Source: Oscillospiraceae bacterium | GTDB taxonomy: Bacteria > Bacillota > Clostridia > Oscillospirales > Ruminococcaceae | Direction of reading: 5' to 3' | DNA: 64,000 nt | Assembly (NCBI GenBank): GCA_045633415.1 | Contig: JAZQYH010000001.1 | Span: forward strand, 938 to 64,937 | Made by a program: the position numbers and the translations under genes | The notes under the pieces: generated by a model | Told to the model about the DNA's origin: nothing | What the model saw: the letters and a program-made list of their open reading frames with translations, nothing else | Databases searched by the model: none | Shown: piece after piece, positions 15,819 through 16,983 of the stretch | Numbering within the stretch: position 1 is the stretch's first letter | How the letters are laid out: each line of letters begins with the position of its first letter

Positions 15819-16439
15819 TTACCATTTTGTTTTTGTTTCTACAACCTTACCTGCAATATATACATCATTAAGTTCTTCGCCTGTAATGATTTTTGCTTCA
15901 TAAGCAGGGTTGAAAGGCTGCAGAATAATCATATTGCCTCTTTTTACAAAGCGTTTCAGTGTGCCTTCGTTATCGCCATATACAATTACACCTAAATCAC
16001 CATCGTTTAAAGTGTTCTGTTTATGTACAAGGGCAAGGTCGCCATCTTTGATTCTTGGCTCCATACTGTCGCCTTTAACAATAAGGTAGAAATATTCTTC
16101 AGGGTTGCGTACGTTGGCATATTCCACACCATAGTCGTCGTTGTAAGCCAGTGCATTGTAGCCTGCCTTTACTGTACCGATAATAGGTATAGCATTTTCA
16201 CCACCAGTAATAGCTACTGCATTTTCCACCAGTTTAGAAACACCCAGTAAAAAGTCTACACTTGTACCAAAAAACTCTGCAATTCTGCGCAGTGTTTCGC
16301 TGTCTGGGGTACTTTTACCGGTTTCCCATTTACCTACAGCCTGCTGTGTTACCTGTAACTCCAGTGCAAGCCGGCTCTGGCTCAGTTTGTTTTCCTTACG
16401 CAATTTTTTTATATTTTGGCTGAACAAAATTTTCACCAC
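15819..16439 (-). CDS. XRE-family HTH repressor fused to an S24 (LexA/CI-like) self-cleaving peptidase domain
   Basis: 206 aa. HTH is NIKKLRKENKLSQSRLALELQVTQQAVGKWETG. Ala-Gly cleavage context is IIGTVKAGY. Ser is in KGDSMEP and Lys in AGKVVE. The start is non-ATG (GTG 16439, or TTG 16427), so it is uncertain. Confidence 0.85.
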   Translation of the reverse strand: MVKILFSQNIKKLRKENKLSQSRLALELQVTQQAVGKWETGKSTPDSETLRRIAEFFGTSVDFLLGVSKLVENAVAITGGENAIPIIGTVKAGYNALAYNDDYGVEYANVRNPEEYFYLIVKGDSMEPRIKDGDLALVHKQNTLNDGDLGVIVYGDNEGTLKRFVKRGNMIILQPFNPAYEAKIITGEELNDVYIAGKVVETKTKW

Positions 16440-16589
16440 TTTCAGTTGTAATTCTGACTATATTATACATTATAAAATCGCATTTGTAAACAACTAAAAG
16501 TAGTATTTTGCTCTATAAATTGTGAAATAGCTATTGACAACAACTTTTAGTTGTAGTAATATATAATCAAAGGAACAACTTGTAGTTGT
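16435..16589. promoter_or_regulatory. Divergent promoter region with four 15-bp operators, consensus ACAACT-N3-AGTTGT
   Basis: O1 is 16435-16449 (ACCACTttcAGTTGT), O2 is 16490-16504 (ACAACTaaaAGTAGT), O3 is 16540-16554 (ACAACTtttAGTTGT) and O4 is 16575-16589 (ACAACTtgtAGTTGT). The + promoter is TTGACA 16534-39, 17 nt, TAATAT 16557-62. The - promoter is TTTACA (16490-85), 17 nt, TATAAT (16467-62). Confidence 0.65.
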
Positions 16590-16603
16590 TAAAAGGTGAT
16601 GTT

Positions 16604-16864
16604 ATGAAAATACAGTCTAAAATTTATTTATATAATTTCCTCACAGTAGTTTTTGCTCTTATGACAGTTATCAGCCTTGGTTCTCTGGGTCAGCTGCCAC
16701 TTTATACAGTTGTATCCAACGTTGCACTTTTTGCAATGGCTACATATTTCTGTGTTAATAAAGAAAATCATTATCGTGCAGTAATCAAAAACCGTCGCAG
16801 ACATAAAAAGGTACAGCTTTCTGTTTACAGAGGCAATGGCAAACAGTCTGCCAAAGTTGCATAA
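16604..16864 (+). CDS. 86-aa two-TM membrane protein with a basic C-terminal tail, divergent from the S24 repressor
   Basis: ATG 16604 is preceded by AGGTGA. Reads MKIQSKIYLYNFLTVVFALMTVISLGSLGQLPLYTVVSNVALFAMATYFCV...KNRRRHKKVQL. No family recognised. Confidence 0.6.
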   Translation: MKIQSKIYLYNFLTVVFALMTVISLGSLGQLPLYTVVSNVALFAMATYFCVNKENHYRAVIKNRRRHKKVQLSVYRGNGKQSAKVA

Positions 16865-16927: not shown

Positions 16928-16964
16928 AGCAAATAGACCTGTTTTACAGGTCTATTTGCTTTTA
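16928..16964 (+). terminator. Intrinsic terminator
   Basis: AGCAAATAGACCTG-tttta-CAGGTCTATTTGCT followed by TTT. Confidence 0.8.
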
Positions 16965-16983
16965 TACAGTCAATAATAACTGT

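Follow-up and report, generated by a model that had tools for sequence, protein, structure and literature searches.

How a bacterium without LexA governs its response to DNA damage is the question raised by a divergent gene pair in a 64,000-nucleotide stretch of an Oscillospiraceae bacterium (assembly GCA_045633415.1, contig JAZQYH010000001.1, positions 938 to 64,937 of the forward strand), the whole of which is referred to as the window. One of the two genes encodes a CI-type repressor, in which an XRE-type helix-turn-helix (HTH) is joined to a Peptidase S24 domain, the other a protein of 86 amino acids (aa) with two predicted transmembrane (TM) helices, and four copies of a palindrome lie in the control region of the pair. 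As the same box is found at recA, radA, a Y-family polymerase gene and a repair operon, the repressor is read as very probably being the SOS master repressor of this lineage, a substitute for LexA, and not just a local switch. The small membrane protein, in turn, is likely to be damage-induced. The elements of the locus are the following:

15819..16427 (minus strand): CI-type XRE-HTH/Peptidase S24 repressor, 202 aa from TTG 16427, assigned by Pfam, PHROGs, alignment to LexA and genus alignment
16435..16449 (no strand): operator O4, ACCACTTTCAGTTGT, one mismatch; downstream of the repressor -10, over the GGTGA ribosome-binding site and 5' leader
16462..16490 (minus strand): repressor promoter, TTTACA-17-TATAAT, 11 of 12 consensus positions; -10 and -35 invariant in the genus alignment
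16490..16504 (no strand): operator O3, ACAACTAAAAGTAGT, one mismatch; abuts the repressor -35
16534..16562 (plus strand): promoter of the small gene, TTGACA-17-TAATAT; TTGACA invariant across the genus
16540..16554 (no strand): operator O2, ACAACTTTTAGTTGT, perfect; fills the spacer of the small-gene promoter
16575..16589 (no strand): operator O1, ACAACTTGTAGTTGT, perfect; 13 nt downstream of the small-gene -10
16604..16864 (plus strand): 86-aa protein, predicted two-TM hairpin with a basic cytoplasmic tail ending in KVA; AAGGTGA ribosome-binding site at 16593-16599
16928..16967 (plus strand): intrinsic terminator with a 15-bp stem (16928-16960), a 3-nt loop and then CUUUUAU; -28.9 kcal/mol, z = -5.6

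Four copies of ACAACT-N3-AGTTGT had been claimed in the original prediction, and a search of the 64-kb window allowing at most one mismatch indeed returned four, all of them within 16435-16589, a number reached in none of 100 shuffles. The operator can be described as a 15-bp palindrome, ACAAC-N5-GTTGT, whose half-site centres are spaced by one helical turn. When the intergenic regions of 12 species of the genus are aligned, neither the two promoters nor the ACAAC/GTTGT arms show any change, whereas the centres of the boxes and the distances separating the elements drift, O2 with its invariant arms and variable centre being a case in point, and this is a clear phylogenetic footprint. The predicted placement of the boxes held for the one abutting the -35 of the repressor promoter, the one in the spacer of TTGACA-17-TAATAT and the one downstream of it, but not for the fourth, which had been thought to overlap the repressor start: since the repressor starts at TTG 16427, O4 covers the ribosome-binding site and not the start codon. 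Within O4, TCACCAC is invariant among the 12 genus loci, and a GTGGTGA stretch that is operator half-site and ribosome-binding site at once explains why the mismatch of this box is conserved. Both boxes of the small gene are perfect, whereas the two autoregulatory boxes carry conserved mismatches (GTAGT and ACCAC). By analogy with the graded SOS boxes of Escherichia coli, this difference suggests graded control at the locus, in which the small gene would be derepressed tightly and late and the repressor be under looser control.

The open frame of the repressor (15819-16439, minus strand) reaches up to GTG 16439, corresponding to 206 aa, and this mechanically chosen start lies 12 nt upstream of the conserved one. 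The latter is placed at TTG 16427 because L027 and L029, the two most distant of the 12 aligned species, have ATG at the equivalent position, and because L024 and L029 have 1-nt indels in the stretch from the upstream GTG to this codon; residue numbers nevertheless count from the GTG. The combination of XRE-type HTH and S24 domains, recognised already from the letters alone, is borne out by Pfam matches to HTH_3 (residues 10-64, 62 bits) and Peptidase_S24 (residues 85-200, 90.5 bits). In PHROGs, the protein belongs to the CI-like repressor family phrog_4 (1.5e-45, residues 5-203), its identity to phage repressors being 33-40%, and the joining of an XRE-type HTH to S24 places it in the CI-type class (COG2932/phrog_4) that includes HdiR and FddR. 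A canonical LexA (TIGR00498/COG1974) it is not, as the N-terminus is HTH_3 instead of the winged-helix LexA_DNA_bind (PF01726) and the NCBIfam model TIGR00498 is matched at positions 77-196 only, with 73.9 bits against a cut-off of 110.95. Alignment to the LexA structures of E. coli and Thermotoga puts the cleavage site at A92-G93 (IIGTVKAGY), the nucleophile at S125 (GDSMEP) and the general base at K162 (GTLKRF), equivalent to A84-G85, S119 and K156 of E. coli LexA. Hence, cleavage site and serine are those of the original prediction, while the lysine proposed there, K198 in AGKVV, has to give way to K162. With these sequence determinants present, we infer that the repressor is a protein undergoing RecA-stimulated autocleavage.

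The host genome (2.15 Mb in 129 contigs, 99.7% complete) contains no LexA DNA-binding domain, the best match to PF01726 having an E value of 0.02. A second S24 match in this genome (C61) was rejected as a regulator, being signal peptidase I encoded beside rplS and ylqF, and the repressor of the window is thus the sole LexA-like protein of the genome. Perfect ACAAC-N5-GTTGT palindromes occur eight times genome-wide, and seven of the eight are intergenic and in promoter position, whereas for nine control palindromes matched in half-site composition only 10 of 50 occurrences are intergenic. In silico, the seven lie upstream of the repressor's own gene, recA and repair or mutagenesis genes, as listed here:

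two perfect boxes at the own locus (O1 and O2)
one perfect box 35 nt upstream of recA
one perfect box upstream of radA/sms
one perfect box upstream of the Y-family polymerase gene
one perfect box, with a one-mismatch site 31 nt off, upstream of a radical-SAM "DNA modification/repair" gene (TIGR03916, 653 bits), which is followed by a DUF4130 gene
one perfect box 10 nt upstream of a YpsA/SLOG-like gene (PF06908; G000:C70:20682-21206; L003 991-1515; L016)

The eighth perfect box, located inside a gene for an EF-G-like/NYN fusion protein, was taken as chance. Within the genus, 22 of 23 genomes have a perfect box upstream of recA, and such a box precedes the radical-SAM operon in 25 of 27 and the polymerase gene in 9 of 13, again with invariant arms and variable centres, while no perfect box precedes recA in any of seven genomes from other families of the order. 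The conserved boxes at the radical-SAM and DUF4130 cassette, in particular, lend strong in-silico support to the assignment of a putative DNA-damage gene set. This uncharacterised cassette (G000:C115:4133-6302; L004, L015) is preceded by two boxes 31-32 nt apart, an arrangement kept in 25 of 27 genomes of the genus.

The boxed YpsA/SLOG-like gene sits at the edge of an integrated mobilisable element with serine recombinase, ParB and MobA/VirD2 relaxase. In Bacillus subtilis, division is inhibited when YpsA is overproduced. The gene observed here could be a second damage-induced division factor or, alternatively, an element-borne hijack of the host SOS signal.

Above the model cut-off, canonical LexA was found in 1 of 24 other genomes of the genus and, outside the family but within the order, in 9 of 16. 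The single LexA of the genus (G016:C255:36008-36568, L039; 125 bits) comes from an assembly of 2.8 Mb with 5% contamination and could be a contaminant, a copy on a mobile element or a retained lexA. In a sample of 200 evenly drawn genomes of the family, with the host genome included in the counts, a full-length ortholog of the repressor (54-84% identity) is present in 32, and LexA was not found in 28 of these 32 holders but in 116 of the 169 non-holders. The holders include Allofournierella massiliensis DSM 100451, Gemmiger sp. An50, An87 and An194 and Anaerotruncus sp. G3(2012); the genus of the window itself consists of metagenome-assembled genomes from the ruminant gut labelled Oscillospiraceae. 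Where both regulators are encoded (four genomes), recA is preceded by a GAAC-N4-GTTC-like box in three and by neither box in the fourth, and in none by the ACAAC box; among the LexA-less holders tested, by contrast, four of six have a perfect ACAAC box at recA. This distribution fits the route proposed for FddR of Francisella, in which a self-contained divergent unit expands to a regulon after loss of LexA (PMC13148647). Read in this way, the relatives having both LexA and the module show what would be an intermediate stage toward a rebuilt SOS network.

With regard to the small gene, the original prediction of an 86-aa protein with two TM helices and a basic tail, encoded in front of a strong terminator, withstood closer inspection. 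Pairwise dN/dS ratios within the genus range from 0.12 to 0.45, indicative of purifying selection and thus of a real gene. AlphaFold2, supplied with 29 homologues, predicts a helix from residue 3 to 26, a short loop and a second helix from 33 to 82 (pLDDT 70, supporting a helical hairpin only), and the last 35 residues have a net charge of about +9 to +10, so that by the positive-inside rule both ends are probably cytoplasmic. The protein has no match in Pfam, NCBIfam or PHROGs, the ESM Atlas returned unnamed clusters only (scores up to 0.86), and a word-based protein search gave close relatives only, for which the sole source name is "hypothetical protein". Homology to YneA or to ChiZ with its LysM domain was not found either, and the predicted topology is not bitopic N-in/C-out.

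A divergent small open reading frame of the same architecture (basic N-terminus, TM1, short Gly/Glu loop, TM2 and Arg/Lys-rich tail) stands beside the repressor ortholog in about 37 of 41 loci examined in genus and family, answering the suggestion of the original prediction to look for conserved pairing in genomes. The pair together with its boxes is kept in all 12 genus loci and in most family loci, and the pairing is strict over about 25 genera even where LexA is retained; identity to the small protein of the window drops below 25% in most other genera. By profile search of 1.84 billion representatives, 158 clusters were retrieved at E ≤ 0.001, nearly all with 70-110 aa; this is a new, unnamed and unannotated family of at least 158 clusters. 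No comparable divergent two-TM gene was found beside canonical lexA in other families of the order, a weak check as the same script found no LexA boxes there.

As had been stated for the immediate surroundings, the locus is devoid of prophage genes, its neighbours being of the housekeeping type (nitroreductase, amidase, ThrE, PNP, MFS, M20 peptidases and glycosyltransferase). In 9 of the 11 other loci of the genus (L019-L029), the downstream MFS gene keeps its place, and an origin as prophage remnant, named beforehand as the outcome that would speak against the proposal if the pair marked the edge of a degraded prophage in relatives, was rejected on both grounds. What is found, hence, is a chromosomal, vertically inherited, non-prophage S24 repressor in a LexA-less genome.

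For the target of the small protein, a complex was modelled with a SEDS protein whose gene shares a contig with ftsZ at a distance of about 2 kb and which was taken as the FtsW of the dcw cluster. The model attained a median ipSAE of 0.68, compared with 0.01 for the best of three controls; in the calibration of the tool, this mark is reached by 55 of 80 solved complexes and by 3 of 110 mismatched pairs. In the model, residues 8-39 of the small protein meet residues 69-76, 94-102, 125-136 and 367-372 of FtsW, by hydropathy TM2, TM3, the following extracellular loop and TM10. Precedents provide the FtsW idea with a good prior, as YneA binds FtsW via its TM helix, AlphaFold 3 models put SosA, ChiZ and SidA on FtsW (PMC13396833), and in LexA-less Acinetobacter the ddrR gene, divergent from umuDAb, encodes a division inhibitor (PMC13689564). 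The model is to be taken as supporting FtsW binding without showing it, and the chances that the small protein is a division inhibitor acting on FtsW are put as evenly balanced.

The most conserved feature of the small-protein family is its C-terminus. Ala-Ala ends occur in 18 of 30 positional orthologs, whereas 0.95 are expected from tail composition (reached in 0 of 20,000 shuffles), and in only 0.16% of the long open reading frames of the host genome. Among 150 family representatives, 61 end in AA and 47 in VA (108 in total, 72%). The host encodes ClpX (614 bits), and the tag of its transfer-messenger RNA (tmRNA) reads ANRNTLVAA; for the tmRNA gene itself (G000:C15:11600-11945), the ARAGORN output gave "tag not identified". 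As the family combines a probably cytoplasmic C-terminus with a non-polar end like that of the tmRNA tag, an ssrA-like degron was proposed, and the chance that the tail serves rapid clearance by ClpXP or FtsH may be put at about one half. Removal of SulA by Lon offers a parallel. Another one is the action of CtpA and DdcP on YneA (PMC6051672).

Taken together, a CI-type repressor would have assumed the role of LexA in this lineage, its dimer binding to the palindrome and holding down its own promoter via the two imperfect boxes, the divergent small gene via the two perfect ones and, in addition, recA, radA, the Y-family polymerase gene, the radical-SAM/DUF4130 repair operon and the YpsA-like gene. 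Upon DNA damage, RecA filaments would trigger self-cleavage between Ala and Gly by the Ser/Lys dyad, resulting in derepression of the regulon. The 86-aa product would then insert into the membrane as a helical hairpin, N- and C-terminus both cytoplasmic, and, as the complex model suggests, most likely bind the divisome peptidoglycan polymerase FtsW within the membrane and pause septation, while its Ala-Ala or Val-Ala end may be recognised as a degron by ClpXP or FtsH, clearing the brake once the repressor returns. This combination of an S24 LexA substitute with an FtsW-directed, degron-bearing membrane brake is the explanation that we favour, if only slightly, as a whole. A wider proposal is advanced more tentatively, with somewhat less than even confidence: a gut Oscillospiraceae clade comprising relatives of Gemmiger, Allofournierella and Anaerotruncus may have rebuilt its SOS response on a captured phage-type repressor, with intermediates that keep LexA for recA and the module local, and the partner gene may represent a new class of division inhibitor, an intramembrane/cytoplasmic hairpin acting at a site of FtsW other than the TM7 site of YneA and carrying its own tmRNA-tag-like degron as recovery timer.

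Several observations weigh against parts of the favoured explanation. The total of eight perfect boxes is not much above that of the control palindromes, the signal residing in their location, and related genomes are not independent samples, for which reason no test statistic is given for the co-distribution with LexA. In public RNA libraries, 90-95% relatives were represented by short contigs alone, which break at the same points as those of a DNA run, and these libraries are therefore uninformative on transcription and induction. The predicted contact on FtsW is not the TM7 site employed by YneA, and an extracellular domain as in YneA, SosA and ChiZ is missing. Moreover, the controls of the complex model were unrelated proteins, perhaps not membrane proteins, and the RodA paralogue was not among them, which leaves room for a hydrophobic hairpin docking on polytopic proteins in general. 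Finally, the small protein of the host genome itself ends in KVA and not in AA.

Against this background, a different signal, for instance Clp proteolysis, heat or envelope stress, could inactivate the repressor in place of RecA-stimulated autocleavage. IrvR, which is LexA-like, acts independently of RecA (PMC7101444), and HdiR, as summarised in a study on Bacteroidetes regulators (PMC8565304), requires ClpP besides RecA and responds to heat as well; the Ala-Gly site and the Ser/Lys dyad are complete in the present repressor, however, and its putative regulon consists of DNA-repair genes including recA itself, making this alternative improbable. Still lower is the probability to be given to a local switch or domesticated remnant of prophage immunity, for which a box at recA or at another of the genes would be coincidental or belong to another factor and the SOS genes be constitutive or otherwise controlled. 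Such a reading could draw on the affiliation with the phage CI-like family phrog_4, on the small number of boxes in the genome overall and on three of the four genomes also having LexA, in which the module looks purely local, but it is at odds with the retention of boxes with invariant arms and variable centres at recA, the radical-SAM operon and the polymerase gene in the proportions given above, with the phage-free flanks and with the lack of a second LexA-like protein.

The alternatives for the small protein concern its target. A short, very hydrophobic product without recognisable domain, expressed from behind two perfect boxes, might act as a membrane toxin under SOS control, similar to TisB/DinQ or to holins, that oligomerises, dissipates the membrane potential and drives dormancy or death. 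LexA-controlled membrane peptides do exist in E. coli, where TisB and DinQ are likewise small and hydrophobic. These are depolarising type I toxins of about 30 aa with one TM helix, antisense RNA control and no cytoplasmic tail, whereas the protein of the window has 86 aa, two helices and a 35-aa tail, and its family 75-120 aa and a long basic cytoplasmic tail; an antisense RNA partner was not noticed, although no search was aimed at one. The degron-like end and the vertical conservation beside a master repressor suit a reversible checkpoint better, and the complex model puts the protein on FtsW; a toxin appears unlikely. Instead of the divisome, the small protein might also modulate the regulator or RecA, as a membrane-tethered co-repressor or anti-repressor resembling the regulatory side of DdrR, which in Acinetobacter is co-repressor and division inhibitor (PMC13689564, PMC11332147). 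The strict pairing with the repressor, irrespective of LexA, and a basic tail that could bind DNA or acidic surfaces would suit this role, but the other promoters of the putative regulon have the same simple palindrome and no further conserved element, and only a small probability is assigned to it.

Regarding known systems, the module is a variant combining two kinds, a co-opted S24 SOS repressor and a divergent small membrane checkpoint protein. On the side of the repressor, HdiR of Lactococcus and Streptococcus, FddR of Francisella (PMC13148647) and the non-canonical LexA of Bacteroidetes (PMC8565304) are likewise phage CI-type S24 repressors co-opted as DNA-damage regulators in lineages without canonical LexA, and resemble the present one in autoregulation, palindromic operator and divergently transcribed unit. 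The differences lie in the clade, Oscillospiraceae of the Clostridia, in the operator, ACAAC-N5-GTTGT instead of GTG-N11-CAC, GGA-N5-TCC or CTAA-N5-TTAG, in a putative regulon that with recA, radA and the repair operon is broader than the minimal networks of HdiR and FddR, and in relatives that keep LexA alongside the module. On the side of the small gene, the layout had been compared in the original prediction with lexA-yneA and lexA-sosA, a view that is supported here and widened to a putative SOS master repressor: lexA-yneA (Bacillus, Listeria), lexA-sosA (Staphylococcus), lexA-chiZ (Mycobacterium) and umuDAb-ddrR (Acinetobacter, PMC13689564) all have a small membrane-associated checkpoint gene divergent from the SOS repressor and under its operator, as is the case in the window for a small membrane protein gene under a putative SOS operator. 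There is, however, no sequence similarity to YneA, SosA, ChiZ or DdrR, and two TM helices with both ends probably cytoplasmic, no LysM or extracellular part and a basic tail ending in AA or VA set the new family apart. Contact with FtsW is predicted at TM2, TM3 and TM10 and not at TM7 as for YneA, and turnover would use a cytoplasmic AAA+ protease instead of the extracellular CtpA and DdcP. SidA of Caulobacter crescentus has 29 aa, a single TM helix and no basic tail, and is under canonical LexA control without being divergent from lexA. In being small, SOS-induced and essentially intramembrane and in acting on FtsW without an extracellular domain, it nevertheless resembles what is proposed here (PMC4211646, PMC13396833).

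A literature search retrieved HdiR, UmuDAb, the Bacteroidetes regulators and FddR but no paper on SOS control in Oscillospiraceae or the Faecalibacterium group, nor on this module. If the proposal is true, this adds another independent case in which a phage-type S24 repressor has replaced LexA and, within the literature searched, the first from Clostridia, and the regulon takes in recA, unlike the minimal networks of HdiR and FddR. The relatives with two regulators would then point to a stepwise route for rebuilding the SOS response from a self-contained divergent unit (PMC13148647), and an operator and a predicted SOS regulon would be defined for abundant, poorly studied gut anaerobes, with a bearing on prophage induction, mutagenesis under antibiotics and the effects of chemotherapy in the gut. 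The unannotated small-protein family would constitute a candidate FtsW-directed division brake with built-in degron.

Two minor observations remain. The best match to the repressor in the phage database (57.5% identity) is a 4.6-kb record from human faeces filed as "UNVERIFIED: Bacteriophage sp." (MT839076.1; L223, 1-4600), which was rejected as a phage, being very probably bacterial DNA without phage genes. On this fragment, the radical-SAM repair gene and DUF4130 come directly after the repressor ortholog in the same orientation, so that repressor and repair cassette adjoin and possibly form one operon. The fusion gene containing the eighth perfect box (G000:C67:894-3458; L224 95-2659) looks unusual in itself, as its 854-aa product joins an EF-G/TetM-like GTPase (GTP_EFTU, EFG_III, IV and C) to a C-terminal YacP-like NYN nuclease.

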